DNA of 64,000 nt from a virus: positions 1 through 64,000 of IMG/VR virus record IMGVR_UViG_3300035142_000030. One strand, 5' to 3'. Position numbers and translations under genes: made by a program. Below the pieces are notes generated by a model that saw only the letters and a list, made by a program, of their open reading frames with translations, searched no databases and was not told the origin of the DNA. This document shows positions 46,011 through 62,951 of this stretch, piece by piece. Every line of letters begins with the position of its first letter. The stretch's first letter is position 1.

Positions 46011-46307
46011 CTACCAACTGTTATAGAATCTGATTTTATGCACACCTTTAGGTAAATCTTTAATAAATATCTCATATCCAGAAGAAGCATCGTCATCATA
46101 TTCTTTATAATGTTTTCCTGCTTCTAAGTTTATTTCTAATTTTTCATCCAATAAGTATTCTTCTGGATATTCACTGCCAAAATATTCAGCAGTAGCCTTT
46201 GGTAAATCTACATCAGCTTCTAAACAGGCTAATAATACTTTTTTGTGTTTTTGGTAAGTTTCATCCGTATCAGGTATGAATGCTTGTACATGTGTTGACA
46301 TTCCCAT
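46011..46307 (-). CDS. Hypothetical phage protein
   Basis: 98 aa, ends IRFYNSW. Confidence 0.6.
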   Translation of the reverse strand: MGMSTHVQAFIPDTDETYQKHKKVLLACLEADVDLPKATAEYFGSEYPEEYLLDEKLEINLEAGKHYKEYDDDASSGYEIFIKDLPKGVHKIRFYNSW

Positions 46308-47770: not shown

Positions 47771-47830
47771 AATATCAATTAGTTAAAATTTATGTTCCAC
47801 CTATCGATTAGTTAGCTGTAATAAAATTTA

Positions 47831-48100
47831 CTATCGTTCTACCCAAAAAGGATATTCCCCTGTATAAACTACTTTATTGCCAGCATTTGGCACGTATTCC
47901 CCTCGCTCGGTTTTCATCCAGTTCATTAGTGGTTCAAATGATGTTTTAGTTTCGTAACCGAAGCATCCATATTTAAACTTTATCTCCTTTTTGAAACCTT
48001 CATTTTCAGTTAAATCTCCAAATGGTGTAACATAAGGGAATACTACCATATCACCCTCGCACACTTCAATTCCGTTTTTATCAAATATATTACTTTTCAT
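47831..48100 (-). CDS. YopX-family cassette protein (start re-called to MKSNIFDKNG)
   Basis: DKNGIEVCEGD motif; the upstream part of the track ORF is attC sequence. Confidence 0.7.
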   Translation of the reverse strand: MKSNIFDKNGIEVCEGDMVVFPYVTPFGDLTENEGFKKEIKFKYGCFGYETKTSFEPLMNWMKTERGEYVPNAGNKVVYTGEYPFWVER

Positions 48101-48118
48101 GCCGTAAATTTTACATAC

Positions 48119-48218
48119 CGCTAACAAGCGGTCATAGTTAATAAAGCCAATTAAGTTTAGTTCGTTGTAGGTTGCGGTAGTGGGTGGCTTTACTAACCAT
48201 ACCGCATCTACGTTACAG
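48119..48218. repeat. attC-like site F
   Basis: CGCTAAC-AA-GCGGTCATAGTTAATAAAGCCA / TGGCTTTACTAACCATACCGC-ATCTAC-GTTACAG, with an extra C in the left arm. Confidence 0.82.
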
Positions 48219-48266
48219 ACAATTGCCCGCACGGCATTCCGCACGGGCTATCGCTCACAACCCACT

Positions 48267-48623
48267 CTAAATTTTGTTTAGAATTTGTTCCAACGCCCAA
48301 TACTCTGGATTTGCAAGAGCAGTAACTACATTATTAATATCACAAATACTAATAATCAGCCAAATACATAAAATGATTGCAAGTATAACAATTGCAATCC
48401 AATGTCCAACTTCAGTATCATTATCATAGCATTTTTGATAATTTTTAGCAAACCATTTTATGTATCGCACATATGGTATAATTAAGAGAAAAGAAATAAT
48501 GATTAAGGTAATTCCCACAAATGCATCAATAGGTGCTTGCTTAATCATAACTCCCCACAAGTATTCGGTCGTTGTACCAAGCTTACTTGCTAAGCTTTCT
48601 AATAATGTTGTTAATTCATTCAT
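48267..48623 (-). CDS. Two-TM cassette protein
   Basis: LASKLGTTTEYLW...NPEYWAL; body ends GTTACAGACAATTG / CAATTGTCTGTAAC. Confidence 0.7.
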   Translation of the reverse strand: MNELTTLLESLASKLGTTTEYLWGVMIKQAPIDAFVGITLIIISFLLIIPYVRYIKWFAKNYQKCYDNDTEVGHWIAIVILAIILCIWLIISICDINNVVTALANPEYWALEQILNKI

Positions 48624-48666
48624 TTTAATATAATTTAGTTAAACAAAATTTTCTAATGTCAATTGT

Positions 48667-48814
48667 CTGTAACAGTCGCCTAAATACAGCATTCGTCGCA
48701 GCTTCGTATCAAATTGGTTCATATCGTATTGAAACCCTAAGGCAACTATCTGTAACTACTAAATACAAGCCAGCGAGACAAGCTCGCCATCGTGTATTTA
48801 GGCGACTGTTAGAT
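48667..48814. repeat. attC-like site G with perfect 19-bp arms
   Basis: TAACAGTCGCCTAAATACA / TGTATTTAGGCGACTGTTA. Confidence 0.8.
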
Positions 48815-49001
48815 TCCATACTCCCACGGCATTCCCACAAACCCCGCTACGCCCCACCGCACAAAAACCATCGTATGAAATCTAATGGTACGGCAAGTAG
48901 TACCACTCGCTCAATACCATTTACGTATCTGAATCTTATTACTTCCTCCAACGTACAGAATCTAACTGTCAAGTCAGAGGAAAGTAATTTTAGAACTCAT
49001 T

Positions 49002-49226
49002 CTAAACAATACGTTTACAGCTTAATTCCCAATGTACTTGTTCGGCAACTTTTAATCTACGAACTGAACTTTTTCCAGTTTCAGGTAATTTGCCTTCATT
49101 TAACCATAATAATATCATTTGTATAAAGTTGCCTGCTGGCAATTCTACTTTTTGACCTTTACCATCTATATAATAAACTGTATCAGTCAATTCGCTGTAA
49201 ACTAATTCTTTTTTTTGCTCAATCAT
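49002..49226 (-). CDS. Hypothetical protein enclosed by an 18-bp inverted repeat
   Basis: 74 aa; arms at 48884-48901 and 49276-49293. Confidence 0.6.
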   Translation of the reverse strand: MIEQKKELVYSELTDTVYYIDGKGQKVELPAGNFIQMILLWLNEGKLPETGKSSVRRLKVAEQVHWELSCKRIV

Positions 49227-49396
49227 TTCTATATAATTTTATCTGTTAATAAACAATGTTCTAAAATTCCCATCCACTACTTGCCGTACCATTGTAACTC
49301 AATTGACAGCTCTCCATCCGCACAAGGCTTCCCATCCGCCCCGCAAAATACCAAAGCAATTGAGTTACAACGCTCGGAGTTCATTCGATGTAAAAA

Positions 49397-49651
49397 TTAT
49401 GAAACACCGAGTTTATGAGCTTCTTCATCAAATGCAATTTTTATATTTGTAATTTCAGTTTGAATTTCTAATAAAAGTTCATGAAATTCTTGTTGCTTAT
49501 CTTCAATTTGTTTGTCAGCAAATTGCATTTTTGAAATTATGTTCTCCTTATAAGCATAAGCAGAGTTCAAATCATTTTTTAATTTTGTGTGCTTAGCTTT
49601 AAGAACATCAAGTCTATTTAAGTAATTACCATACTGTTCTTGAAAATTCAT
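49397..49651 (-). CDS. Coiled-coil cassette protein
   Basis: 84 aa. Confidence 0.6.
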   Translation of the reverse strand: MNFQEQYGNYLNRLDVLKAKHTKLKNDLNSAYAYKENIISKMQFADKQIEDKQQEFHELLLEIQTEITNIKIAFDEEAHKLGVS

Positions 49652-49700
49652 AATTTTTACCTTTCTATATTTAAGTTTATAATGTTCGATACGTCACAGC

Positions 49701-49810
49701 GTACAACTACGTGTAATGCAGAATTGCTACAATCGAATGATGCCGATTTACGGCTTTACTTTGCCTTGCGGCAAATCGCCGCAACTCAGCATACACTCCG
49801 AGCGTTATGC
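49701..49810. repeat. attC-like site
   Basis: GTACAAC-TAC-GTGTAATGCAGAATTGC / GCAACTCAGCATACAC-TCCGAGC-GTTATGC. Confidence 0.75.
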
Positions 49811-49842
49811 GTAAAAATACCCGCATCCTAGTTCGCTAACGC

Positions 49843-49938
49843 TCACCCATCCGCATCCTCCCACTTATCAATATACAATTTTAGCTTATAAATAAGTATT
49901 CCTATTACAATTCCGATTCCTATTAATATTAAATTCAT
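49843..49938 (-). CDS. 31-aa single-TM micropeptide cassette gene
   Basis: MNLILIGIGIVIGILIYKLKLYIDKWEDADG; fills a body with 16-bp complementary ends. Confidence 0.55.
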   Translation of the reverse strand: MNLILIGIGIVIGILIYKLKLYIDKWEDADG

Positions 49939-50095
49939 ATCCAAATATTTTTACGCATAACACCAGAGAAAATATACCGTCCCGCAGGAGACGTTCTCCA
50001 GTATCTGCAAGTTTATATTCCTAATATTTCTACTCATAACTAAAAAATCATAGCACATTAAAATCAAAACTCTGTGTTTAATAAAATAAAGCCAA

Positions 50096-50446
50096 TTAAT
50101 ATATATTCTTTCTACCCCTGTCAGCGTGCAATGGTACTAAATGATCACACGAACCGCAAAAATGTTTAGCTTTAGTCTCCCAGTAAATTCCTTCAGAATG
50201 TGTATCAAAAAGCGAATTACAATTGCTACACATCTCAATATGGTCTGGTAGTAAAGGAAAATGTTCTTGTAAATAATAAATTATTGCAAACGCTTTTTTA
50301 GCTGTCATCTTTGGCTGATGCCCACGCTTAAAAGAAAGTTGTTCAGGTAATTCACCTTGTAAAAAATTGTAAAATTCTTCTATCCATTCAAGGTCTGTAT
50401 CAATCCTCTGATCATTATTTTTAAGCAATTTTATTTCATTGTACAT
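50096..50446 (-). CDS. Zn-binding hypothetical protein
   Basis: CSNC...CGSC; enclosed by an 18-bp inverted repeat. Confidence 0.6.
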   Translation of the reverse strand: MYNEIKLLKNNDQRIDTDLEWIEEFYNFLQGELPEQLSFKRGHQPKMTAKKAFAIIYYLQEHFPLLPDHIEMCSNCNSLFDTHSEGIYWETKAKHFCGSCDHLVPLHADRGRKNIY

Positions 50447-50586
50447 AAGGCTTTATTTTTAATTAGTACTAAATTTATAATCATATTTTACCTGTAATTT
50501 CATCAAGTTTCAATCAATGTTTTAATTTTACCGTCCCATATTTTCTCTGGTGTTAGAAAACATGCCGTTTCGAACGGACGCAAAAA

Positions 50587-50868
50587 TCATTTTGCTTTCT
50601 TATATTTAGAGCCTTTACTATTACAAAAATCACATATTGCATTGTTAGGTTTGTTAGATATACATGAACTGCAAAATTTCCATTTTTGCTCATGTTTTCT
50701 AACGGTTTCACGTTCGTTTGATATTAAAATTTGATTGATAAAGTCATTCAATTGGACTATAGCGTATTCAACAGACAACATATCTAATGTGTCTTCATCT
50801 CCAATTGTATCAAGTCTATCCATTAATATCTTACGTATTCCATCAGTATAATCTTTTTTATGTTTCAT
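50587..50868 (-). CDS. Cassette protein with Cys-rich C-terminus
   Basis: CSSC...CDFC. Confidence 0.6.
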   Translation of the reverse strand: MKHKKDYTDGIRKILMDRLDTIGDEDTLDMLSVEYAIVQLNDFINQILISNERETVRKHEQKWKFCSSCISNKPNNAICDFCNSKGSKYKKAK

Positions 50869-50926
50869 AATATCAAATTTTAATTATTAATACTAATTTA
50901 GTTTATCAATTCTCAACGTCACGATT

Positions 50927-51036
50927 TTCTAACCAACGTTTATGCTTAATTAAAGCTATCAAACGATGCTCCGTTAAAGCTTTTCTTGCGTTTCACGCAA
51001 CCGCTTTAACAAAGCATACACGTGAAACCGTTAGAG
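50927..51036. repeat. attC-like site
   Basis: TTCTAAC-CA-ACGTTTATGCTTAATTAAAGC / GCTTTAACAAAGCATACACGT-GAAACC-GTTAGAG. Confidence 0.8.
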
Positions 51037-51041
51037 TGCAT

Positions 51042-51329
51042 TTAATCCAAGTGAATAAGCATTTCTCCCCACGCACTTCTACCTTTCACTTTCGGTAGTG
51101 ATGTGTAGTGTAGTGTCATTCCTGTAAATTCACACTCTTTGTTATTTAAACTTTTTTTAACCATCCAGTCTTTTGCTTCTTTCCTTATAATATCATCTTC
51201 ATTGTTTCGATGCCAGCCCACGCTAATTATCAAATTACCAATTCTAATTTTACTAAGTGAAAAACGCACTCTAACAATAGATAAAATCCATTGCTTAAAA
51301 TGTGCTAATTCGTTACGTAAGTATTTCAT
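51042..51329 (-). CDS. Cassette protein starting inside an attC loop (MKYLRNELAHFKQWILSIVRVR)
   Basis: N-terminus homologous to that of the 31098 protein. Confidence 0.6.
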   Translation of the reverse strand: MKYLRNELAHFKQWILSIVRVRFSLSKIRIGNLIISVGWHRNNEDDIIRKEAKDWMVKKSLNNKECEFTGMTLHYTSLPKVKGRSAWGEMLIHLD

Positions 51330-51398
51330 ATCAATGTTTTTATAAGTTTGAAAATTCAGTTCATTAAATCGCAACGTATCTTATCAGAGCCGTTGCAC
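51269..51398. repeat. attC-like site homologous to 31027-31155
   Basis: CTCTAAC-AATA-GATAAAATCCATTGC / GCAACGTATCTTATC-AGAGCC-GTTGCAC. Confidence 0.8.
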
Positions 51399-51485
51399 AC
51401 AATGCCCCATCTAGGGGACGTGCGACTCGCTATCGCTCCTGTCGCACTCATTGTGTGCAACAGTTTGGCGTTAGCTTGTAAATAA

Positions 51486-51662
51486 TTATTCGCTCAGTAC
51501 TTCTAAACTATAAGATGATACATAATCAATCTTTTTACCAACTATTACAACTGCATACGGTATATCATCAGCTCCCCGCACGTATCCATCAATGTATCCA
51601 ACATCTCCAACCTTAAACATCATATGTTGGTATTCTTTAATAATTTTAACTTTTGTCTTCAT
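51486..51662 (-). CDS. 58-aa hypothetical cassette protein (MKTKVKIIKEY...)
   Basis: Translated by hand; below the track cutoff. Confidence 0.6.
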   Translation of the reverse strand: MKTKVKIIKEYQHMMFKVGDVGYIDGYVRGADDIPYAVVIVGKKIDYVSSYSLEVLSE

Positions 51663-51697
51663 AATTATTTATTTAGTTATTTGTTAATTTCTGCTTA

Positions 51698-51868
51698 CTA
51701 GATGGTGCACAATGTGCAACTAGCGTTTATGCGTAATTGTAATAGGCAATTTCCAATCTCCCAGTAACTTGCGCCTAAACGTTCCAATATCATTTCAGCT
51801 TTCTCAAAGCTCCAACTTTTATAACATTGATAAAAGTTCCCTTTATAGGTATACATTATATGAATCAT
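51698..51868 (-). CDS. Hypothetical protein (start MIHIMYTYKG)
   Basis: AAATTATG context; C-terminus reads through an attC-like arm. Confidence 0.45.
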   Translation of the reverse strand: MIHIMYTYKGNFYQCYKSWSFEKAEMILERLGASYWEIGNCLLQLRINASCTLCTI

Positions 51869-51985
51869 AATTTTATATTTAAAGTTTGTACTAAATTTTA
51901 ACAATACCCTAAAAATCCTTCCCATATCTTTCGGAGTGTTATGGCTCAATTTCGCTACGCTCTACGATGACTTCATTTAATTGAG

Positions 51986-52171
51986 CCATAACGAGACAAC
52001 GTATGAAGTACAGGCTCAGTGTACTATATTAATTCTATTTTAATTTATCCGCTCAACTAGAGCATAACTACATATAAGCGTAATACTATGAGCCTTACTT
52101 CAAAGCTCTCAGAATATTTCACCGATAAAAATCGGCTCATATTCCTACGCTTATACGTTGTCTCGTTAGTA
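51986..52171. repeat. attC-like site with perfect 16-bp outer arms (right edge of array 2)
   Basis: TAACGAGACAACGTAT / ATACGTTGTCTCGTTA, plus inner TGAAGTA..AGGCTCA / TGAGCCTTACTTCA pairing. Confidence 0.75.
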
Positions 52172-52253
52172 GCAAGCGGGTTCAGTTCTCGTATCAAACA
52201 TTGTGCGTATTTGAAAGAAAAAGAAAAGCCCCGCCCGCTTTTGGCAAAGCCAA

Positions 52254-52868
52254 TTAGGATAAAGCTGCAAGTAGTTCAGTTACCCACTTATTTGAATCTT
52301 CACATCTTTTCAATTCTGCATTGTGTTCTTTTGTGTGGTATTCAATATCCCAGTTGGCATCTGCAATCATATCCTTTCTAATATCAGCAGCATTTATGTT
52401 TTCTAATTGAGAATCTATCTTGCTTAACTCATCATCGTGGTACTTTGTGTCTCCATCGTGGTCAATAGTTGTCACTATCTGTTCAATCATAAATTTAGCA
52501 ATTCCTTCGTGGTCTTTTGTTGGTGGTTTGAAATCCCTTGCTTTAATTAAAAACTCATCAAGTTTAACCCTTGCTTTTTTTATTTCCTTAATTCTTTCGG
52601 TGTGATAGGTTCTACTTTCTTTTATCTGTTTTTTGCGAGAGGCAATTATTTCAGAATCGGTAAGTTTCTCAGCTTGATTTAATTTTTCATTAGCTGTTTT
52701 TAACGCTTTAATATGGTAATCGCTCGGCGTTCTTGGCACGTACTCTTTATTCATACTTTCATCTCTCATATGTATAGTTGCTCCAAAAGCTCTCATACAT
52801 TGTTTTGCAAAATCTTGGAATGTTTCGGTTGTGCCGTCAATAATTCCTGCTGTGTAACCTGTTGGCAT
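52254..52868 (-). CDS. Conserved-looking phage protein (MPTGYTA...)
   Basis: 204 aa, helical. Confidence 0.65.
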   Translation of the reverse strand: MPTGYTAGIIDGTTETFQDFAKQCMRAFGATIHMRDESMNKEYVPRTPSDYHIKALKTANEKLNQAEKLTDSEIIASRKKQIKESRTYHTERIKEIKKARVKLDEFLIKARDFKPPTKDHEGIAKFMIEQIVTTIDHDGDTKYHDDELSKIDSQLENINAADIRKDMIADANWDIEYHTKEHNAELKRCEDSNKWVTELLAALS

Positions 52869-52914
52869 AATTTCTAATATTTAGTTATTAATAAAATTCT
52901 TTTTCCCACAAGCA

Positions 52915-53262
52915 TCAATCAAAATAAATGACTTGCTTAAATTTAGGTTCAACAAACTCAACTTTATATTCCGTATGTGGAAATTTAGATTGAACTTTTA
53001 TGTATTTGTCATTTATTTTTAATATGCTAAAATCATAATGTTCAAATGTTTCAACGTATAACTCTTTTAAATAAGTCTTATCCATAGCCCACACACAAAC
53101 TTCTTCTAACATCCACATAGCTGTATATAAGTCATTAGCTACATAAGTCAAAAACTTATTTTTAGTATCAGTTAAACTACATTTATCTCTATCAATTTTA
53201 TCCCAATGTTTATTTGCAAATTCATACATATATTCACAAATAAGTTTTTCTTCTGGTTTCAT
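52915..53262 (-). CDS. Hypothetical protein
   Basis: 115 aa. Confidence 0.55.
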   Translation of the reverse strand: MKPEEKLICEYMYEFANKHWDKIDRDKCSLTDTKNKFLTYVANDLYTAMWMLEEVCVWAMDKTYLKELYVETFEHYDFSILKINDKYIKVQSKFPHTEYKVEFVEPKFKQVIYFD

Positions 53263-53295
53263 AATTCTATAATATTTTATTTTTAGTTTAATAAA

Positions 53296-53553
53296 TCATA
53301 AATTTCGTTGTTTCTGAATGTTAATGTCAGATTTACGCTGTGTTCTGTACTCTCCATCTATTTCAAATATTTCTAGATTATTATATATTTTATGTTTAGG
53401 CTTAATCCCATCACGTACTCTAAACCATCCCATAATAGTATCACGAGGTATATTTAATAAATCCCTTAAAACACCTTTATTTTTACATAGATATTGTTCT
53501 CCTGTACTACGGTCTCTTACAAATACTTTAGTAGTTCTTCTAAATATTATCAT
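53296..53553 (-). CDS. Hypothetical HTH-like protein
   Basis: 85 aa, LRDLLNIPRDTIMGWF. Confidence 0.45.
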   Translation of the reverse strand: MIIFRRTTKVFVRDRSTGEQYLCKNKGVLRDLLNIPRDTIMGWFRVRDGIKPKHKIYNNLEIFEIDGEYRTQRKSDINIQKQRNL

Positions 53554-54080
53554 TTTCTTATTTGTGTAAGTGGATTAATATACTTTAGTCCCTCTTTCAT
53601 CCTATCGTGGAATTGCCTATTAAGGTATGATTGCCTGGGGTTGTTCCCAAATTTAGCAATTATCATTGCCCTCACTGCTTCTTTTGATATGCCAAGCTCT
53701 TTACCTATTTTAGTATACCACCAACGCTTATTGGTAAATAGATGATATGCCTTCTCTTTAATATCGTTGGGTATCTCTTTACCTTCAATGTTAAGTGTTA
53801 GATTCTCTTTATCGTTGTTTTGGATATCTCCGTCTTTATGTATCACTTTAGCGTGAGGGTTGAATATTCCATAAAACATCAAATATTTGAACTCATCTAC
53901 CGACACATCCACACGAAGCGAATAACCGAGCATTAATCGGTAGATGTATTTCTTATTTATAAACATCACTTTTACGGGTCTTTTCTGCTTTGTATTTAAT
54001 AGCTCTTCTTTTTTAGTGTCAAAGGTATACTTACCGATAGAAAGTGCCCCTAAACAAACGTACTGAGTTTTTAAATCCAT
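53550..54080 (-). CDS. Degenerate HNH plus HTH protein
   Basis: VIHKDGDIQNNDKENL; IGKELGISKEAVR. Confidence 0.6.
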   Translation of the reverse strand: MDLKTQYVCLGALSIGKYTFDTKKEELLNTKQKRPVKVMFINKKYIYRLMLGYSLRVDVSVDEFKYLMFYGIFNPHAKVIHKDGDIQNNDKENLTLNIEGKEIPNDIKEKAYHLFTNKRWWYTKIGKELGISKEAVRAMIIAKFGNNPRQSYLNRQFHDRMKEGLKYINPLTQIRK

Positions 54081-54081
54081 G

Positions 54082-54531
54082 TTATTTATTTAAAGTTTTA
54101 ATTACTTGTCTGTAGATCTCTTTAAGAGATTCTACAGGAACGTATTTTCTCCATTTATCTCCGAATATATCAGGAAAAATATTTATTCCTTTAAAATATA
54201 AAGAGCACGCATCAGAGAATAGATAGTCACTATCAAAGTGTTTATGGAACTCCTGTTTTTCATCCATAAACCCCCTATAAAAGTTAAATAGTATAGATTT
54301 TCTATTATATACTTTGCAAGGATCAAGATTACATCCTTTTAATATTCCTTTCTCATACACAAATCTTGCATAGTCACCAAGCTCATGCATATCAGTAAAA
54401 AAAACCTTTGGATGTGTCTGTTTAGAAGATATGAACTTAAAGATTTCGCTCCAGCAATGAGAAATTACAGTCTTAGGAATATCTTTTCTTCTGGATACTA
54501 TTTGAATAGTTGTTGGATGTAGTAGCCTCAT
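54082..54531 (-). CDS. Hypothetical protein
   Basis: 149 aa. Confidence 0.5.
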   Translation of the reverse strand: MRLLHPTTIQIVSRRKDIPKTVISHCWSEIFKFISSKQTHPKVFFTDMHELGDYARFVYEKGILKGCNLDPCKVYNRKSILFNFYRGFMDEKQEFHKHFDSDYLFSDACSLYFKGINIFPDIFGDKWRKYVPVESLKEIYRQVIKTLNK

Positions 54532-54583
54532 AACTATAATTTTTGTGCAAGATACAATTAATTTTCATAAAAGTCAAATAGTA

Positions 54584-54796
54584 TTACAAATAATCTAAAA
54601 TTAACTTAAACATTATCTGACTATTAAAGTTGTTTAAAGAGTCTTTATTCCTATAAACATAGACTAAGAATTGTTTTCTCTGTAGGACATTTAATTGAGA
54701 TACCCCCATCTCAAATCCTATATAATCTTGATCCTTAAAAATATCAATTAAAGAATCAAAATATAAATCCTGTTGTTCTTTTGAATCGAATCTCAT
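54584..54796 (-). CDS. Hypothetical early protein
   Basis: 70 aa. Confidence 0.5.
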   Translation of the reverse strand: MRFDSKEQQDLYFDSLIDIFKDQDYIGFEMGVSQLNVLQRKQFLVYVYRNKDSLNNFNSQIMFKLILDYL

Positions 54797-54988
54797 AAAA
54801 TGCTTTTTTAATAGTTAGTATTTTTATTTTGCTTTTTATATTCCTTTTAAAATATTAGTTTCATTGTTAATATTAAGAAGAACGCATTAAATTCTAATTT
54901 GCGTTTAAAATTATTAACCATCTCTTATTGTCAATATGTAATTTTGCGTCATTGTTAAGTATTATAATCAAATCTTAGTTACCTTTAT

Positions 54989-55186
54989 TTACCCATTAGA
55001 ACGTATATAATACAAGTTAGTGCATTTTGATATATACATACTACTTTCAATAGTTATTGGATTAGAAGCGTTAAAATGTGCCTTAATTAGTTTACTAAAC
55101 ATATAACTATCTATTTTATGATATTCTGGTATTAAATGCCCATATATAGATAGTATCTTTTTTATATGTTCCTTATCTAGTTTCAT
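54989..55186 (-). CDS. Hypothetical early protein
   Basis: 65 aa. Confidence 0.45.
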   Translation of the reverse strand: MKLDKEHIKKILSIYGHLIPEYHKIDSYMFSKLIKAHFNASNPITIESSMYISKCTNLYYIRSNG

Positions 55187-55238
55187 AATCTGAGAATTAT
55201 AATTCTTTTGCGTTTCCCATTTTATCGATGATTTTTAG

Positions 55239-55445
55239 TTAATATTTAAGTAATTCATTATTTAAGCCGTCTATACGACCTTTACAAAACTTAATCTGCT
55301 CGTTTATTTTGTGATATGTATCACAAGCAAAATTACCGTGAAGATTTACGTCAGTATTATATATTCCTTTTATTTTTTTCAAAGCAGCAATACTTTTTTC
55401 ATATTTTCGAATATTTTCTTTAATAATTAATTTTCTTGGTTTCAT
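55239..55445 (-). CDS. Hypothetical early protein
   Basis: 68 aa, AAAATTATGAAA start. Confidence 0.5.
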   Translation of the reverse strand: MKPRKLIIKENIRKYEKSIAALKKIKGIYNTDVNLHGNFACDTYHKINEQIKFCKGRIDGLNNELLKY

Positions 55446-55588
55446 AATTTTAATATTTAAATTTATTTTTAGTTAATACTTCGGTTATAGATATAACGGT
55501 TTCTATTCGTTAATATATAGTATATAACAATTAATTGAATAGTGTATCAATTCAGAGGGTTTAAACGTCCTTTATTCGTAAAGGCAGA

Positions 55589-55852
55589 TTAATAAAATTT
55601 AACTATATTTATACAATACATTAACGACCAAGTTTTGAAACCGTAACAAATTGCCTGGATTTTGCTTTTAATCTGATTTTTTAGCCTCTTTTCTGTCTCT
55701 TTTGGTTTAGTTTCGATATAATCAAACTCTGCTGTGCTAGACAATAAACAGCTATGTGTTATTGGGGTGAGATTAAAGCCAAAACAATGCAACATTGGAA
55801 AGGATTTTTCCAATAACACAAGCTGAATATTTAGTTTCTTTGTATTCTGCAT
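55589..55852 (-). CDS. Hypothetical early protein
   Basis: 87 aa; TATATTTG on the minus strand at 55875-55882. Confidence 0.45.
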   Translation of the reverse strand: MQNTKKLNIQLVLLEKSFPMLHCFGFNLTPITHSCLLSSTAEFDYIETKPKETEKRLKNQIKSKIQAICYGFKTWSLMYCINIVKFY

Positions 55853-55978
55853 TATTTTAACTTAATCTCAAATGCAAATATACAAAATATATCAATACCC
55901 TATTTTTTAGTAAATGTAAGAACGTTTGTTTAATATTTTTTATCTGTTCATTGTCGCTGAACAAACAAAATAAATGAA

Positions 55979-56167
55979 CTAATAAGCTAAATTATAATAA
56001 ATAGATGGTTCGCTAGTCACATTATATATATAACTTCCACACTTAACAAGAAGAACATCTTTACCATAATATTTATCTTTCATTCCTTTTATACTGCCTG
56101 ATGCGCTAAAATTAGGTAAATCCTTTACTTTGTCGTAAAATTCAGCTTTTAAATATTTTGTTTTCAT
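55979..56167 (-). CDS. Hypothetical early protein
   Basis: 62 aa, AAATTATGAAA start. Confidence 0.55.
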   Translation of the reverse strand: MKTKYLKAEFYDKVKDLPNFSASGSIKGMKDKYYGKDVLLVKCGSYIYNVTSEPSIYYNLAY

Positions 56168-56194
56168 AATTTCATAATTTTAGTTAATAATTTT

Positions 56195-56256
56195 GCGCCC
56201 CTATACCGAATCGAACGGCCTTCCTTATTATTTCGGACACTCCAAGTATTAGAGGC
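56195..56256 (-). ncRNA. Minimal tRNA-like element
   Basis: Acceptor GCCTCTA/TAGGGGC, D-like ATAC-TTGGA-GTGT, T arm GCCG-TTCGATT-CGGT; anticodon arm degenerate. Confidence 0.5.
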
Positions 56257-56365
56257 TTATTTTTAGCCTAAATAATGAACCATTAAACCAAACAGATATA
56301 AAACTATCAGAATAGATAAAAATATCATTAAATAGGCTAATATATAGTTAAATTTGTGTTTCATT

Positions 56366-56644
56366 TTATAACATCTTACTTTTGCATCCTTGATAAGTAT
56401 AATTTGTGTGTAGTAATTCGTCTTCTGATACTTCAAACACAGCTACGTGATTTGTGTCTTCACAAAAGTGCTTATACTCCCAAGCTTGTTTTGCTGTTTC
56501 TGGTTCGTTGTCCGTGCCTTCCGGGCAGAAGTCTGTTTCTTCATACATTCTTTTAAATTCCTGTTCAATTTCTTGTAAATTATCACTTGCAAACACTTCT
56601 TTTGCAATTTGTTGTCCCGATTTATAAATTCCTATTTTATACAT
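56366..56644 (-). CDS. Hypothetical early protein
   Basis: 92 aa. Confidence 0.55.
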   Translation of the reverse strand: MYKIGIYKSGQQIAKEVFASDNLQEIEQEFKRMYEETDFCPEGTDNEPETAKQAWEYKHFCEDTNHVAVFEVSEDELLHTNYTYQGCKSKML

Positions 56645-56846
56645 AACATTAAATCTTTTAAGGGTTAAAAAATAATACTAAGAATAGTTAAGCCAATTAT
56701 AAATGATAATACAATAGCTTTTAATGTACGAACATTCTTTTTAGTAATTAGTTCGTGTTGCTTTTTGAGTTCCATAACAGATATATTATTGTTATCTGCT
56801 ATAATTCTTAATTCTTGTTTAGTTAAGTTTTTCATAGTTGTATAGT

Positions 56847-57071
56847 TTAGTGTAAAACTTTATGTAATATTTTACCATTCCTTAAATAATTAAAATAGTT
56901 ATCGTGAGAATCGTAAGGAAATAAACTATTTCCTTTATTGTCCTGTGTAATTTTACAACCACATACATAGTCTATATGTATTTGTAGTTGTTTTAAACTA
57001 AATTTTGGATGTACATTGTCGTTAAAACTATCAAGACAATCAATAATGTGTTTATCGTTTATAATTTTCAT
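56847..57071 (-). CDS. Hypothetical early protein
   Basis: 74 aa, TAATG-coupled. Confidence 0.5.
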   Translation of the reverse strand: MKIINDKHIIDCLDSFNDNVHPKFSLKQLQIHIDYVCGCKITQDNKGNSLFPYDSHDNYFNYLRNGKILHKVLH

Positions 57072-57733
57072 TATATTTTAGATATTTCAAAAACATCAAA
57101 AGTTTTTCCGCTTGCAATAGTTTTAAAACTAAAACCTACTTTTTGCATAATATCATCATAACAAGAAACGCCTACACCACCTTCTAAATGTGGTAAAATA
57201 CCATAACCAATACCATAACTAAATAATTCATGATTTTTAGTCTCAATATTAATATCTTTTAAAGTATAAAGTAATTTTCTAAAAGATAAACTTTGATTTA
57301 CTGCTTTTGCTACTGCTACACTTTCCTTGTCATAGCCGCACCCAGAAATAGAACCAGAGTTAAAATGCTCGCATGTTCCATCGGTATAAAATACTGTTGC
57401 TTCTGCTGTTGGATTTTTCCCCCACATTTGGGACTTTTTCCACTCAACACTAATTGTAATGATTTTTAATTCTTTTGCGCTTTTAACTTGTTCAATGTGG
57501 CTTAATTGATCATTTAGTTTTTTAGCAGCTTTTTTATTTAATCTTTTAATTAAATAGTCTTTTAATTGGTCAACATTTTCCCAATCTCTATTCCTACTAC
57601 TTGCAGGTATTAAATTATTGTAATACCATTTATTAAGAATATCCTTTATTGATGTTTCTTTTTTAAGATCGCTTAAACTCTCGTTTAACTCTCTTTTATT
57701 TTCTTCTGTGATGTGATTAATTAAATTTTTCAT
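57071..57733 (-). CDS. Conserved-looking phage early protein
   Basis: 220 aa; SISGCGYDKESVAVA and EGGVGVSC motifs; first gene of the leftward block. Confidence 0.6.
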   Translation of the reverse strand: MKNLINHITEENKRELNESLSDLKKETSIKDILNKWYYNNLIPASSRNRDWENVDQLKDYLIKRLNKKAAKKLNDQLSHIEQVKSAKELKIITISVEWKKSQMWGKNPTAEATVFYTDGTCEHFNSGSISGCGYDKESVAVAKAVNQSLSFRKLLYTLKDINIETKNHELFSYGIGYGILPHLEGGVGVSCYDDIMQKVGFSFKTIASGKTFDVFEISKI

Positions 57734-58044
57734 AGCTGTAAATTTTAGTTGTTTAAATCTTTAGCAATATTACAACCGATATTTCAAAAAAACAAATTTA
57801 TTTTTAATGATTTTGTAAAATATTTTAAGGCCATTAATTAAAATACGCATAAATAAAGGCTTTAAACCATAAACATAGAATGATTTTAAATTAATAAATC
57901 TTTAAGGGACATAAACACACCTTATATATATAAGAACTAATACGCATGAAAAAATAATGCCCTGAAACCATTATAAAGTATAAAAAAATGAAAATAAATT
58001 AAAAATAATTAATAAAATACTTGACTTATATAATAATTTATTTA

Positions 58045-58052
58045 TACATTTG
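58045..58052 (+). promoter_or_regulatory. -7 promoter element TACATTTG
   Basis: TAnnTTTG with CTTG about 25 nt upstream. Confidence 0.55.
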
Positions 58053-58090
58053 CAGAATAAAACTAAATATTAATTTAAAACTATAGAGAT

Positions 58091-58378
58091 ATGAAACAAG
58101 AAGAGATTATACAAAACAATAAACTTATTGCTGAGTTTATGACAGGACAAAGCAAAGAATCGACAGTATTTATGGATTTGAACCGTTCTGCAAATGATTT
58201 AGAATATCATTCATCTTGGGATTGGTTAATGCCTGTAATTAATAAAATATATGAAATTCCTTTAAATCATGGGTGGTTTAGAATTAAATATATTATAGAC
58301 TCTTTTTATCCTATGGATATTGAAAAGACTTATAAAGAAGTTGTGGAGTATATTGAATGGTATAACGAAAACAAATAA
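58091..58378 (+). CDS. Hypothetical phage protein
   Basis: NKLIAEFM...YHSSWDWLMPV..KI motif. Confidence 0.65.
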   Translation: MKQEEIIQNNKLIAEFMTGQSKESTVFMDLNRSANDLEYHSSWDWLMPVINKIYEIPLNHGWFRIKYIIDSFYPMDIEKTYKEVVEYIEWYNENK

Positions 58379-58414
58379 TTAATTTATTTAAAAAAATTTT
58401 AAACATATAAGGAT

Positions 58415-58579
58415 ATGAAGACAAAAAAAGAACTACAAAAAGAAAATAAAGAATTAAAAGAATCTTTAAAAGATATAATTCGACAAGTAGAATATCCACA
58501 AAGATCATTAAGTGACAGGAATGGAATTATGATACAAAAACCAATATTAAAGATAAAAATATTAGATTTAGTTTCATAG
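58415..58579 (+). CDS. 54-aa hypothetical protein
   Basis: Translated by hand (MKTKKELQKENKEL...). Confidence 0.45.
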   Translation: MKTKKELQKENKELKESLKDIIRQVEYPQRSLSDRNGIMIQKPILKIKILDLVS

Positions 58580-58605
58580 TTTAATAGTTAATTTTAGTTG
58601 ATTTA

Positions 58606-58636
58606 AAGGCCTGTATTTAATCGTACAGGCTTTTTT
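58606..58636 (+). terminator. Rho-independent terminator
   Basis: AAGGCCTGTA...TACAGGCTTTTTT. Confidence 0.7.
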
Positions 58637-58891
58637 AATATAATATACCTCATAGGATATAAAATAGCCTTAAAAGCCTTAAATTATATCTTTTCGGGTA
58701 TAATTACACGCATAAACTAGGAATTAACAATAATTATAACTATATTTGTAACTCTATTAGTAATAGTACCCAGAACCAAATAACAATTAATATGAATTAA
58801 CGAGATGTAGACCGGCCTGGCGATAAATCCAGAAGAACACACAAGAAAAGGAATTATAAAAACAAGTGTTAAACTTATTTTTATTGTACAA

Positions 58892-58925
58892 ATAGCCTGG
58901 TTTAAATTAGATCAGGTTATTTTTT
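58892..58925 (+). terminator. Rho-independent terminator-like hairpin
   Basis: ATAGCCTGGTTTAA-A-TTAGATCAGGTTAT plus T run. Confidence 0.55.
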
Positions 58926-59771
58926 ATGCTTAAAGATTAAGTTTATTAAGTCTAAATAAACGTTAAAAGCCTAGATATTAAGATTTAAACCCTCTGAGAA
59001 TTGAATATTTGAAACGCTCATGCACTATGATACTGTACAGATTACTCTCAAGGACTTAAATATTAAGAACTTAAACAAATAACACGCATAAACCATAAAT
59101 CAAACATAAAATCCTTTCAAGGATATTACATATATAAGAAAGAGACAATAACAAAAAAAAACATCAATATAATAAATAATAAATACCAGCAAACTATTTA
59201 ACAATTATTATATATTTCTGTTTGCTGGATAGAATAGAGTAAGTATTTGGACAGGAAATAGATATAAATAGTATTTTAACTCCGTTAGAATTGGATATTC
59301 ATATCTATTGTGTAATATGATAGATGATATTATAAAGAATCTGTATTAAATAGATAGAATATAGTGTTATTTCAGCTAAAATATACCTTTTTGACTCACA
59401 TTTTTAGTTAAAATATCATATTTAATAATCAGGCACTTATATAATTTTGGTCTCAGTTCCACACAGCGCGAAGACCAACTTTTGAAGATTTAATATACCT
59501 CAGTTATTATCTTAGATATATAGAGAGGATTTTAACAGGATATTAGTATTATTAAAGAATGGGCAAGCTCATCAACTAATAATATATAGCATACTACTAT
59601 GTTATACCAAGTGTTTCAAAATGGAACACTTTTAGGTAAAATAAACCCAACCTATTTTTTAGGTTGGGAACAAAAAAGGCTGTAAGGCTTATAAATACTA
59701 AAGAATTGTGAAAAACGATAAATTGATTATTTGTCCAATAATTAGTATTTTGTTAATATGATTATGAGACA

Positions 59772-60368
59772 TTATAGCACATCAGGCTTGAACTCAAAGA
59801 TATATGCTTTATGCCTAGTTTCATCTTTTAAATATCGATTAATTGTTTTGCGATCTACACCGAAATGTTTAGCCGCATCGACAACAGAATCAAACTGTAA
59901 TTGTTCCCTGGTTTGTATGTGTGTGGTTAATATAGGTTTTTTCTTTGCATTTGACATTTTTATGCGTGTTTCAAGGTTGTGCGGAGGTTTTATTTTGCCT
60001 TTCCAATAACTATTCCTTTGTCCTGTCTGAAAGGATTTTAATATGTTTTCGCTATGAGTTACCCACTCTAAGTTAGATATATGATTATTTAACTTATCGT
60101 GGTCAATATGGTTAACCTCTTTCTTATATTTATTGTCGCTATATCCCTTGAAAGTGATTAATACGAGCCTATGAGCGAAGAATATCTTTGTGCGTGGTTT
60201 ATCTCTGTTCTCTTCTGTCTTCTCTTGCGTAAGATGGTATAATATATAGCCACAACTATTTAGTTGAGGTTTTAAGAATCTTTGCTTTCTGATAGAATAC
60301 ACATCACCGTTTTCATATATATAATATAAGTTTTCAAATCCTGGTAACATTATTGTTTTTCTTTTCAT
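59772..60368 (-). CDS. Free-standing HNH homing endonuclease (NUMOD4-HNH-NUMOD3/NUMOD1 type)
   Basis: PGFENLYYI.ENG, AHRLV, EVNHIDHDKLNNHISNLEWVTHSEN, ETRIKMS, FDSVVDAAKHFG. Confidence 0.88.
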   Translation of the reverse strand: MKRKTIMLPGFENLYYIYENGDVYSIRKQRFLKPQLNSCGYILYHLTQEKTEENRDKPRTKIFFAHRLVLITFKGYSDNKYKKEVNHIDHDKLNNHISNLEWVTHSENILKSFQTGQRNSYWKGKIKPPHNLETRIKMSNAKKKPILTTHIQTREQLQFDSVVDAAKHFGVDRKTINRYLKDETRHKAYIFEFKPDVL

Positions 60369-60744
60369 AATGAATTATTTAATTAATATTGATGTGTGAC
60401 AAATGTACAAAATATAATTAATATATACAAATTGCTTTTTCTTTGGCTCAAACATTTAGGAAGGAAATAATACTAGGAGTATGTTTATTTACTTAATACA
60501 GACGATCTGATGCACTTTTATAGTATGAGCGGATACTTTTTCATTTTCAATAAGTTAATGTCTTTAAAGGGGTTAATTTTAAAGGGGGTAGGTTCGCAAA
60601 TTTCGTTTTAGGTTAGCAAGTGACACCCCTCATTTTATATCTTTAAGCCCATATAGAGAATAGTACAAACATTTTAAATCCTTAAAATATACACTATTAG
60701 CTATAATAATCAGTAATAAATTATGATATTAACTATTTTATCCT

Positions 60745-60752
60745 TATATTTG
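60745..60752 (+). promoter_or_regulatory. -7 promoter element upstream of cassette array 3
   Basis: TATATTTG about 80 nt before the first attC-like arm. Confidence 0.5.
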
Positions 60753-60929
60753 TATAAAATAAAATATAATATGTGAATGTACTAAGTTTATTTGATGAGA
60801 TATCATCAAAGCTACTTCATCTTAATGGAGTCTAATGGTTGAGTATATGAGTAGTGTCCCAAACGTACAGTGGGACGCACATAAATTTTAAAAAATGTAC
60901 AAACGAGAATATAAACTATAAAAACACGA

Positions 60930-61346
60930 GTGATGAAAAATTTAAAACAGGCATTAATTGAAAATATCGCTGACATTTTAGATAGTGAAGATGTACGGTG
61001 TGAAGAGGTGTTAAACGGAATTTCCGACCCGATAAAAAGAGAAAAAAGCGAGTTGCATATAAGGATGGCAGAAGCTGCACTTGCTGAATACAAAAGAACG
61101 TGCGAGGACAGGGCAATGGAATTAGATATTGAAATATTTGACAAAAACAGAAAGGTATTACATATAGGTAGTATTATAAGCCGTTATTTATTTAAACTTG
61201 CAGAAAAGCACGATAAAGATGTTGAAGATTTACTACTAGGTATAGAACTAAGCCAACCAATTAGAGATGATGGAAAGAACATCATAGAATTAGTGGACTT
61301 AGACCTTAATAGAATTGACAAGGTTTTATGTTCTAATGGCTTATAA
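60930..61346 (+). CDS. Cassette-type protein spanning an attC-like arm (KVLHIGSIISRY)
   Basis: Stop TAA lies inside the TTATAAC core of the next site. Confidence 0.55.
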   Translation: MMKNLKQALIENIADILDSEDVRCEEVLNGISDPIKREKSELHIRMAEAALAEYKRTCEDRAMELDIEIFDKNRKVLHIGSIISRYLFKLAEKHDKDVEDLLLGIELSQPIRDDGKNIIELVDLDLNRIDKVLCSNGL

Positions 61347-61623
61347 CGTTGAATGTATGGGTAGGGCGTGAAATACCTGCAGCCCTACACGCGATAGATA
61401 AACATTAAATAACATAAATAGCGAACGATTATGAAACACGTAATAGAATTACTTACAGAACAATTAGAATTGATTAGTGACGAAATAAGATATGCAGAAG
61501 GTGAAGAACTGAAACAGTTAGACTGCAGAAACACAGAAATAGGGACTGCTCTTAAAATACTGCAGTTAGTGAGCGGTGTAAATACGGAGAACGAACAAGC
61601 CTTACCTATACATATTGTTAGGG
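61341..61623. repeat. Large attC-like site whose loop holds the start and about 55 codons of the 61431 gene
   Basis: TTATAAC-GTTGA-ATGTATGGGTAGGGCGTG / CAAGCCTTACCTATACAT-ATT-GTTAGGG (17 of 18 paired, two G-T on +). Confidence 0.8.
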
Positions 61624-61826
61624 TTTGTGCTTGGGAGGATGCTGCAGACGAGGATAAAGTACCATTTTTAGAAAAAGCTGCAGAACTTGCAGGTGATTCA
61701 ATGTTTTGTACGCGCGTTTGGAGTGCGTGGGGAGTTGGAACTATGAGCGAGAACGACTTTGTTGATGCTGCAGATGATGATGATTACGTATACGAAATAG
61801 CAAAAGCGATTTGGGAGGGGTATTAA
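61431..61826 (+). CDS. Two-part cassette protein (junction ALPIHIVRVC)
   Basis: 131 aa; C-terminal half lies in the body GTTAGGGTT...AACCCTAAC. Confidence 0.65.
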   Translation: MKHVIELLTEQLELISDEIRYAEGEELKQLDCRNTEIGTALKILQLVSGVNTENEQALPIHIVRVCAWEDAADEDKVPFLEKAAELAGDSMFCTRVWSAWGVGTMSENDFVDAADDDDYVYEIAKAIWEGY

Positions 61827-61924
61827 CCCTAACGCCTTAAAGCGTAAACTCCGTTACATGGAGAACGTAGTTCGGGAATGTAACGAGTTTAAAATGCTGT
61901 AATGGAGTTTACGCATAGTTACAA
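61827..61924. repeat. attC-like site
   Basis: CCCTAAC-GCCTTAAA-GCGTAAACTCCGTTACA / TGTAATGGAGTTTACGC-ATA-GTTACAA. Confidence 0.82.
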
Positions 61925-61976
61925 ACCGTGCCAATGGCACAAAGATTATTAGAATGTTGAACTTAAAATAAATTTT

Positions 61977-62126
61977 ATGAAACGTTTATGTAAAATGAAA
62001 CCATATTATGTAATACCAAGAGTATTTTATATATATGCTGGCTATACTGGATTAGATAATGGATTAGCAATAGGTTGGCTTGGCAGAATGTTTATTATAA
62101 TTATTCCTGTTAATGAAAGGGAATAA
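61977..62126 (+). CDS. 49-aa hydrophobic cassette protein
   Basis: Translated by hand (MKRLCKMKPYYVIPRVFYIY...). Confidence 0.45.
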   Translation: MKRLCKMKPYYVIPRVFYIYAGYTGLDNGLAIGWLGRMFIIIIPVNERE

Positions 62127-62465
62127 AATTTATGCATTTTAGCTTTAAGGCGTTACAAAACCATAGGCAAACAGTGGAAACGGTGAGCGAAGCGAATAAG
62201 TTTCGTTTGCCGTGCCTCGATGGCATGGTTTTGTAACGTACGTGTATACGCCTGTTGGTATGATTATTAATAGTATAAACTTAAATTAATAAATAATAAA
62301 ATTACGTAAATTCGCAAAAATAATAAAGACAACGAAAACAGATTTGCAGAAATGATAATACCCAGAAAAGATATTGATATAATAATTAAGAGACAAAGAT
62401 CAATATTATAACAAAGTGTTAATCAAAAATTGAATGAATAATAAACGTATTAAATATATAATATT

Positions 62466-62633
62466 ATGATAGAGCGATTTGAAGCTTTAATAGGACAATA
62501 TGAAGCTGAACTAAAGAAATTACTTAATGAATTTCGAAAAGCTGAACCATCTCCACATAAATCTGAATTAGAGATTATGATTAGGGAAAAAAAAAGAGTA
62601 ATTTCTGATTTAAAGTGGGTTTTAGTTTATTAG
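62466..62633 (+). CDS. 55-aa hypothetical protein
   Basis: Translated by hand (MIERFEALIGQYEAEL...). Confidence 0.5.
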   Translation: MIERFEALIGQYEAELKKLLNEFRKAEPSPHKSELEIMIREKKRVISDLKWVLVY

Positions 62634-62681
62634 AATAACAAACTTTAAAAAATTATTAAAAATTTATAAAAAATATGAGCG

Positions 62682-62855
62682 ATGGTAACAAGCGACAATT
62701 ATTACGAAAAGAAAATTAAAAACAGTATTGGGAAAAGATTCACACAAAAAGAAGCAATTGAATTTGAAAGAGAAATGATTAATTCCCCAACTGGCACTAA
62801 CAATTATACATGGTTTGATAGTAAAACAAAACAGCCAATTGCGTTTAATTATTGA
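62682..62855 (+). CDS. 57-aa hypothetical protein
   Basis: Translated by hand (MVTSDNYYEKK...); stops 2 nt before an attC-like core. Confidence 0.5.
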   Translation: MVTSDNYYEKKIKNSIGKRFTQKEAIEFEREMINSPTGTNNYTWFDSKTKQPIAFNY

Positions 62856-62856
62856 G

Positions 62857-62920
62857 CGGTAACGGTGGCAATAAGATTAAGCGTAGCGACCCGTAGGGTT
62901 AATTTTATTGCGTGTTATAC
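62857..62920. repeat. attC-like site upstream of the methyltransferase
   Basis: CGGTAAC-GGTG-GCAATAAGATTAA / TTAATTTTATTGC-GT-GTTATAC. Confidence 0.8.
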
Positions 62921-62951
62921 ACTAGCACGAATTATTACTAAAGATGATTAA

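Follow-up and report, generated by a model that had tools for sequence, protein, structure and literature searches.

Perfect inverted repeats at alternating cores in an integron-like gene array of a flavobacterial-type phage

The window analysed here is the first 64,000 nucleotides (64 kb) of the IMG/VR virus record IMGVR_UViG_3300035142_000030, a complete record of 76,721 bp with direct terminal repeats; to judge from its sequence, it looks to be a flavobacterial-type phage that carries an integron-like gene-cassette array. Six pairs of perfectly complementary arms lie in this array between positions 48670 and 62155. A reading made from the sequence alone had taken them for possible intermediates of cassette formation, in which one arm is copied by template switching or fold-back synthesis and captures the neighbouring DNA as a new unit. 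On balance we lean towards a different view: the six pairs would be the stems of recombination-site modules, their perfect arms having arisen by templated correction, and would now be locked or relic structures rather than nascent ones.

A chain of perfect pairs at alternating cores

Our own inverted-repeat search recovered all six pairs, in the places and with the lengths that the sequence-only reading had given them. Across the complete genome, 15 perfect inverted repeats of at least 14 nt are found within 1.5 kb, whereas 200 block-wise, first-order, composition-preserving simulations of the whole genome gave a mean of 2.2 and a maximum of 7; for repeats of at least 16 nt the count is 6 against a simulated mean of 0.26. 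All six of these longest repeats fall in 48.6-52.2 kb, and comprise pairs 1, 2, 4 and 5 together with two further links at 49804/49961 and 50698/51035. The perfect stems also dominate the predicted single-strand folds (z -4.6 and -7.1). An independent Logan contig equals positions 45000-63500 with 0 differences and at an even depth of 12.5; it comes from the sole public run holding the phage, probably the source sample, for which contigs alone were used, and its identity excludes an assembler artefact and little beyond that.

The six pairs are not a separate class. When all perfect inverted repeats are listed, a chain of at least 17 perfect pairs emerges, which covers 48.2-52.2 kb and 61.3-62.2 kb; the earlier list of six, real in every member, was incomplete by 11 core-anchored pairs. 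Adjacent pairs share exactly a 4-nt core, the cores alternate between GTTA and TAAC, and at each core the left arm pairs leftwards and the right arm pairs rightwards. We call a unit of the form TAAC a .. a' GTTA site-type and one of the form GTTA b .. b' TAAC cassette-type; units of the two types alternate along the chain, which is continuous from 49292 to 51275 and has short breaks at 48811-48884, 51275-51392 and 51461-51938. Read in the sense of the genes, pairs 1, 3, 4, 5 and 6 are site-type and pair 2 (48884/49293) is cassette-type. The 17 perfect stems hold 0 wobbles and 0 mismatches, against about 10% G.T in canonical stems, a comparison biased by the choice of the 17 for their perfection.

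On the minus strand, the chain includes a cassette-type link at 48212..48673 (GTTA..TAAC), whose 14-bp arms surround gene g1 (48267..48623) and whose core is common with pair 1, and a 9-nt pair at 48808/48966. Between pairs 2 and 3 stands a compact perfect site-type hairpin (49292..49370), with 14-nt arms that include the core and a 51-nt C-rich loop. The cassette-type link at 49804..49961, with 16-bp arms, has its cores in common with pairs 3 and 4 and holds a membrane-like open reading frame (ORF) of 31 aa (49843..49938). Three links occupy 50552..51275, namely cassette-type 50552-50703 (13 bp), site-type 50698-51035 (16 bp) and cassette-type 51030-51275 (10 bp), and the ORFs of g6 (50587..50868) and g7 (51042..51329) cross cores within them. 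A compact perfect cassette-type hairpin at 51392..51461 (GTT..AAC, 13-bp arms with 44 nt between) shares no core and lies between chain stretches; another, at 51938..51992 (GTTA..TAAC, 14-bp arms, 27-nt loop), is a chain link with its core common to pair 5. On the plus strand are a canonical imperfect site-type link at 61344-61620 (15 pairs including 2 G.T, spacers of 5 and 3 nt), a cassette-type link of 9 bp at 61617-61833, which lies upstream of pair 6 and holds the remainder of gene B, and a compact perfect cassette-type hairpin at 62151..62238 (14 nt), whose core GTTA at 62152-55 is common with pair 6.

Canonical sites, core junctions and genes in either slot

Relatives of the array were fetched by way of a homologue of g5, a gene enclosed by pair 4, and by way of the 204-aa gene at the flank of the array. 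In these relatives the canonical sites, followed in the reading direction of the genes, consist of TAAC, 3-6 nt, a stem of about 10-25 pairs (about 10% G.T), a loop, 1-4 nt and GTTA; the layout is stop codon, site and next gene, and the flanks of a gene pair with each other (GTTA plus 5-6 nt .. complement plus TAAC). Some 19 canonical sites, from the phage and its relatives together, show the order TAAC, spacer, stem, loop, stem, spacer, GTTA/GTTG and form imperfect hairpins. The spacers of ordinary sites overall are unpaired and asymmetric, 3-8 nt on one side against 1-4 nt on the other; the six pairs lack such a central spacer. A loose scan for stems yields many long decoy hits, and only stems of at least 15 pairs were used; at decoy cores, long-range hits reach only 10-11 pairs. 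Non-Watson-Crick positions in the canonical stems, read on the coding strand, are G.T in 27 cases and A.C in 5, and because of this excess the coding strand appears to be the one under selection to fold.

One DNA-level junction is provided by the relative L056, whose flanking gene is 88% identical. L056 and the window stay colinear as far as ...GCTTGC[CT]AC TAAC, and from the following base on the two sequences are unrelated; past the shared TAAC, L056 carries a canonical site of compact form and another gene. The endpoint of homology is the TAAC/GTTA core of pair 5, at 52165-68. Among proteins, seven gene B homologues have in common the translation of the right arm, an invariant IVRV encoded across the core (ATT GTT AGG GTT) and the C-terminal domain; their N-termini cannot be aligned. 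Many standalone proteins begin just past the core position. Likewise, g6 and its one homologue have kept the arm, the core and the C-terminal part, and their N-termini are unrelated. One DNA case and two protein cases thus suggest that crossover falls in the core and that neighbours differ from the core onward.

Pairing of cassette ends (GTTA b .. b' TAAC) over 9-16 nt is seen around g1, g4, g7, the C-terminal part of gene B and an array-1 gene, and over 9-10 nt in the relatives L011, L007 and L061. Related loci totalling about 250 kb contain no long perfect arms. Site-type pairs that are perfect over 11-12 nt and enclose 600-1000 bp do occur in L008-L010, at the frequency that chance predicts, and were left out of the count.

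Genes occur both beside the sites and inside their loops. The genes g3, g5 and C each lie within a site-type unit (326-598 bp), and gene B has its first 62 codons inside the loop of the canonical imperfect site at 61344-61620. In the relative L005, two consecutive whole genes, one of them a g5 homologue, lie between site arms; these gene-enclosing sites, of 535 and 506 bp, have 16 and 19 pairs including wobbles, and their arms read TAAC, a 5-6-nt spacer, GCAATAAGA.. / ..TTTTATTGC, a 2-nt spacer and GTTA/GTTG. Enclosure of a gene is therefore independent of perfect arms, since both L005 and 61344-61620 enclose genes with imperfect, asymmetric ones. In L011 and L007 the g5 homologue occupies the other slot, between cassette ends, and homology among the four g5 contexts comprises the ORF plus about 25 nt on each side only. 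There are 94 g5 homologues, and those in bacterial genomes span several phyla. The simplest description of these arrangements would be a cassette with two slots, in which both kinds of arm form one rod with the core in its middle and a gene may sit in either end loop.

Several smaller features accompany the genes and sites. The ORFs of gene B (61431-61826), g6 and g7 cross a core with an N-terminal leader in the site loop and the body in the next cassette, and the g6 homologue has a different, membrane-like leader before the same junction. An extra layer of AT-rich perfect inverted repeats, 11-14 nt long, hugs the start and stop codons of g1 (48269-80/48640-51), g3 (49390-403/49647-60, including the ATG and the stop), g5 (50083-93/50449-59) and gene C (61968-78/62123-33); for g6 (50723-35/50872-84) the ORF itself contains one arm, and the partner of this arm closely precedes the start codon. 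The g5 homologue of L005 has a 13-nt repeat (2471-83/2841-53) of other sequence in the same place, which argues that the pairing rather than the sequence is conserved. A 3' module (45964-45994 and 50056-50086; ..AAAATCAAAACTCTGTGTTTA..) is 90% identical between the gene at 46011..46307 and g5. The site family with arms GCAATAAGA.. / ..TTTTATTGC also appears as a compact 61-bp site here (62860-62920) and as a compact 59-bp site at a different genomic position in L056 (68-126), and is split around whole genes in L005 (1814-2348, 2408-2913). A 21-nt motif ending in the core, in gene sense GTTA, 8 variable nt and AATATT[TA]GG, has four copies (45848-68, 45929-49, 49941-61 and 50020-39), of which only 49941-61 has a complementary partner (a 16-nt arm at 49804-19). 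An 11-nt pair at 45689-99/46348-58 brackets the unit with the gene 46011..46307, its arms being external to the cores (TTTGAAC GTTA .. TAAC GTTCAAA), and the right arm of this pair is, in gene sense, the 5' spacer of the canonical site 45607-45699. Finally, G-rich GGG/GGATGGG tracts, G-quadruplex-like and on the coding strand, lie in loops or flanks of several sites (minus strand 48812-48880, 49306-49356 and 49820-49860; plus strand 32025-32060).

As to the phage itself, the terminase and portal are distantly related to Cellulophaga and Flavobacterium podophage counterparts. Structural genes occupy 0-40 kb on the plus strand, and the small genes lie on the minus strand from about 42 to 58 kb and on the plus strand from about 60.8 kb; a 312-aa ORF at 43398-44336 (minus strand) has a phosphoheptose-isomerase-like N-terminal part and a guanylate/nucleoside-monophosphate kinase-like C-terminal part by PHROG matches. 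No tyrosine recombinase, Y1 transposase or serine recombinase was found in the complete 76.7-kb genome; the Phage_integrase profile gave 0 matches there at E values up to 1, and there is no IntI, attI or common promoter. Given this lack of an integrase, the array corresponds to an attC-like cluster of the type known as CALIN (a cluster of attC sites lacking an integrase) and not to a complete integron.

Arms with two partners and their origin

The anatomy of the individual pairs is informative about how the perfect arms may have come about. Pair 1 (48670..48811, minus strand), site-type (TAAC..GTTA) and without a gene, has 19-bp arms at 48670-88 and 48793-811. Within it lies a canonical compact site (48753-48811) whose left half, TAAC TA CTAAATACA, uses the same right arm with spacers of 2 and 6 nt (plus strand); the second left half, at 48670-88, has a 6-nt spacer that exactly complements the right spacer. 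Pair 5 (51989..52168, minus strand), also site-type and gene-free, has 16-bp arms at 51989-52004 and 52153-68 and contains a canonical compact site (52065-52168) with an imperfect stem 52067-94/52134-61 and spacers of 1 and 6 nt (plus strand). Pair 6 (61830..62155, plus strand), site-type, has 14-bp arms at 61830-43 and 62142-55 (17/19 if extended). Its left arm also belongs to a canonical local site at 61830-61921, with spacers of 8 and 3 nt and the inner core GTTA at 61918-21, and the distal arm 62142-55 complements the 8-nt spacer of that local site; gene C (61977..62126) lies between two direct junction copies, TTTAYGCAT..GTTACAAA(A)CC (at 61908 and 62129). Pair 2 (48884..49298, minus strand), cassette-type (GTTA C b .. 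g2 .. b'), has 18-bp arms at 48884-901 and 49276-293 and encloses g2 (49002..49226). Directly adjoining the arm, with spacers of 2 and 4 nt, stands an imperfect local partner (48902-21), a copy that has diverged; both of its mismatches, two in all, are G.T when the sense strand is read. Pairs 1, 2, 5 and 6, four of the six, thus have an arm with a perfect distal partner that also has a local, imperfect partner of canonical form, and the distal partner is exact even over the spacer that is normally unpaired. To this extent the proposal that one arm is a templated inverted copy of the other stands, and templated copying of the arm is likely.

The claim that the pairs are perfect right up to the core holds in that the arms reach the core with no spacer between; it does not hold for the left side of pair 2, where the core is absent (the opposite core, GTAAC, is present at 49294-98), and in pair 3 the core is AAC/GTT only instead of the full 4 nt. 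Pair 3 (49369..49806, minus strand), a site-type unit (AAC..GTT), does have the 12-bp arms first described (49369-80 and 49795-806) and encloses g3 (49397..49651). About 35 contiguous nt on one of its sides pair with three separated segments opposite, giving three stems: the 14-nt ORF-hugging stem (49390-403/49647-660), one of 8 nt (49382-89/49732-39) and the outer 12. Two inserts keep these segments apart, which would fit the entry of promoter-like and hairpin DNA into one side of what had been a long stem enclosing g3. Pair 4 (49958..50555, minus strand), site-type with 18-bp arms at 49958-75 and 50538-55, encloses g5 (50096..50446) and its 11-nt ORF-hugging repeat. The direct repeat reported there was likewise recovered, with TACCGTCCC standing just inside both arms (49975-83 and 50529-37). 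If one 9-mer copy and the ~545 nt in between are taken out, what is left is a compact hairpin, 14 bp plus core, closed by a loop of 9 nt. Such an arrangement would fit insertion of a g5 module into a hairpin loop and not fold-back synthesis, because the latter would yield an inverted 9-mer.

The extra half-sites are direct repeats of a junction of about 30-35 nt, comprising the inner stem strand, the spacer, the core and the first 10-13 nt beyond. The part past the core (b of L'-spacer-GTTA-b) has about 75-80% identity by eye, with no similarity further on, and the junction duplications are probably not fresh. Because copying an arm in inverted form cannot supply a diverged flank, the duplication and the perfect spacer should be two events. 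Two other sources of the second half-site were considered and set aside: a long tandem duplication, for which the similarity past the core extends only ~10-17 nt and is marginal (p ~0.03, with two of the three windows offset by a few nt), and a second site of the same family in inverted position, whose other half is unrecognisable by eye in the intervening DNA.

The model that we favour starts from an array of segments joined at alternating GTTA/TAAC 4-nt cores, with the two ends of each segment complementary. In a circularised pair of adjoining segments the arms would stack as one rod (b'-TAAC-a with a'-GTTA-b) with two loops, either of which could hold a gene; pairs 1, 3, 4, 5 and 6 would be 'a' stems, with the enclosed genes in the site loop, and pair 2 a 'b' stem, that is, the two ends of one cassette. 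A polymerase switching template within an imperfect inverted repeat would make complementary the unpaired spacer, which in the family's ordinary sites measures 4-8 nt on one side and 1-3 nt on the other, and this correction would act on the extra half-site copies that adjoin cores; selection would keep the working local site asymmetric, and the redundant half-site would be free to be corrected. Template switching is known to homogenise and to lengthen or expand the arms of inverted repeats (PMC13100816, PMC8604942, PMC7202029). In the array, the perfect spacer is bordered by sequences that already pair, the core at one end and the inner stem at the other, a situation classically associated with such correction of a quasipalindrome. 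This anatomy fits pairs 1, 5, 6 and 2, for which the searches for relatives returned no ancestral allele. As in a quasipalindrome template switch, an imperfect repeat appears to have been perfected over a short patch flanked by existing complementarity; the patch here is the spacer from core to inner stem, and the arms are longer and free of mismatches. The array differs from that process in that the partner corrected here often lies 65-560 nt off, a closer imperfect one having stayed uncorrected, and in that many corrections cluster in one array. More than a dozen long perfect arms stand in it, on either side of the cores, and a neutral mutational bias seems too weak for this; selection favouring pairing over long distances, with loops the size of a gene, or else copying as part of a presumably host-encoded recombination reaction may be involved.

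For the functional state of the perfect arms, relics or locked alternative folds would seem more likely than new sites, because in integrons full pairing of the central spacer lowers bottom-strand recombination 27-fold, asymmetry being needed for synapsis; the attC terminal loop is dispensable for recombination (PMC2727003). We infer, then, a templated origin of the perfect arms, the status of a poor or locked substrate, and recombination at the cores that a host enzyme would carry out.

Several observations weigh against this interpretation. No recombination was seen, and the contigs are those of one run only, probably the source. None of the relatives is close enough to reveal the ancestral state of any of the six pairs, and we therefore infer both templated correction and the direction in which it went. 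Long perfect arms are confined to this phage, which calls for a lineage-specific factor, and at least 14 independent corrections in one 5-kb array are many for a neutral mutational process. Neither the junction duplication nor the 9-nt direct repeat of pair 4 has a demonstrated mechanism, and the sense-strand folding signalled by the wobble bias could equally be explained by RNA structure. The searches for relatives that bear on these points were negative in several forms: blastn of 48000-53000 against cultured phages gave no match; viral-contig searches with g5 (as a single protein), g1, g3 and gene B gave no usable relatives; alignment of gene B gave distant domain relatives only; the 19-mer of pair 1 had no further exact match; and no near-identical relative that could polarise any of the six pairs came to light.

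A possible alternative, which we hold only tentatively, is that genes were captured by insertion into loops, with empty perfect hairpins trapping gene modules at pair 4 and perhaps at pairs 3 and 6. Pair 4, reduced to a compact hairpin with its 9-nt loop duplicated on both sides of the insert, agrees with this; empty perfect hairpins exist in both core orientations (49292-49370, 51392-51461, 51938-51992 and 62151-62238), and the g5 module recurs in three contexts with homology bounded closely around the ORF. However, no empty pair 4 hairpin was found, the exact-match search having covered the pair 1 arm only, the insert has neither terminal repeats of its own nor a known mechanism, and the double partners of pairs 1, 2, 5 and 6 are left unexplained.

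The birth of cassettes by fold-back capture, as the sequence-only reading proposed, we regard as unlikely. Under it, a core and its adjoining arm are copied in inverted form nearby, by fold-back or template switch, and the new core turns the enclosed DNA into a mobile unit. The perfect partner is indeed an exact inverted copy of core, spacer and stem without wobbles, with the older imperfect partner persisting; repeated inverted copying of a core plus the next 10-15 nt would yield exactly the alternating chain with unit-specific arms, and the restriction of long perfect arms to this phage is what recent events predict. The evidence nevertheless contradicts the proposal in part. The 10-13 nt past the second core resemble those past the first, and the distal half-site has a diverged copy of the far-side flank, neither of which the inverted copying of an arm could supply; the 9-nt repeat of pair 4 is direct, not inverted; imperfect arms enclose genes too, and two of the six perfect pairs (1 and 5) enclose none; and a paired spacer lowers recombination in integrons (PMC2727003).

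It is improbable that the stems act in RNA, framing genes in the transcript for processing, stability or translation control, with the cores incidental. The wobble bias, which has the sense strand folding, and the extra perfect repeats at the starts and stops of g1, g3, g5 and gene C and at the start of g6 would suit such a role. There is, however, no reason for RNA stems to require alternating GTTA/TAAC cores, homology with a relative stops exactly at a core, an Rfam search gave no family match, and cassette-end pairing and site anatomy match those of DNA recombination sites, some of which have been shown to recombine in a comparable setting (PMC9892861). Very improbable, too, are invertible segments, in which shufflon-like units would flip and frequent flipping would keep the arms identical. 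Each unit does have inverted cores and identical inverted arms of 12-19 nt, and flipping would leave the junctions unchanged; but genes are co-oriented within each array, here and in the relatives, the arms are unit-specific instead of a conserved binding site, the phage has no invertase, and the contigs show one orientation only, although this last is weak evidence. A chimera of assembly or amplification is hardly credible, for although the genome is metagenome-derived and present in one run only, the independent contig set is identical over 18.5 kb at even depth, the arms (at most 19 nt) are shorter than the assembly word length, and the repeats stop at specific cores and fit a site family found in other phages.

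Likeness to known systems and meaning for cassette formation

Among known systems, the array most readily invites comparison with integron attC sites and CALINs, and CALINs have been reported in virulent phages including a Polaribacter phage (Qi et al., 2023, PMC9892861); the sites of one Polaribacter phage were recombined by IntI1 (PMC9892861). Shared with these are sites that fold, have weak sequence conservation and are bounded by ..AAC and GTT.. at the core; a spacer that, in ordinary sites, is unpaired and asymmetric, together with a terminal loop that varies; arrays in which the genes are small, point the same way and have no assigned function; and the lack of a phage integrase. The cassette ends are complementary as well, and the start of a cassette complements its own R'' box, as follows from a crossover that falls within the core. 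The differences are nevertheless considerable. In attC sites the terminal loop (VTS, variable terminal structure) ranges from 3 nt to a branched structure of ~65 nt and the gene is outside the site (PMC2727003), whereas genes here also lie inside the site loop, and ORFs read through cores from leaders in that loop. Cassette ends pair over 9-19 nt here and over 7 in integrons; integrons recombine the bottom strand, while the wobble bias of the phage array points to the coding strand as the folding one; and the array has six pairs with a fully paired spacer and no attI, common promoter or IntI.

Other systems share single features with the array. Shufflons and invertons (R64 Rci/sfx; the invertible segments of Bacteroides) resemble it in that their segments are bordered by short repeats of alternating orientation with a small common core. 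Their repeat arm is conserved from site to site, and a recombinase of their own is encoded close by; here the arms are unit-specific, there is no recombinase, and the contigs hold no flipped forms. Pre-rRNA stalks and the RNase III sites of phage T7 are long-range processing stems that enclose genes. In them, as in the array, the flanks of a gene pair into a long stem that has the gene in its loop, and it is the sense strand that folds; the alternating conserved cores, the cassette-end pairing and the breaks of homology at cores point here to DNA recombination instead.

The origin of cassettes is an open question for integrons, and the anatomy of phage attC clusters has barely been described. 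A more ambitious interpretation, which we think doubtful, is that the array preserves the birth of cassettes itself, with empty core-based hairpins trapping genes and templated inverted copies of core plus arm making new exchangeable units; if true, it would provide a concrete and testable route to the formation of integron-type cassettes. The value of the finding lies in the sites with double partners and in pair 4 as a possible case of loop capture. In this array every module end beside a crossover core is paired, a gene can lie in either loop and one arm can have two alternative partners, and it offers, ready-made by nature, the same sites both with a paired and with an unpaired spacer.

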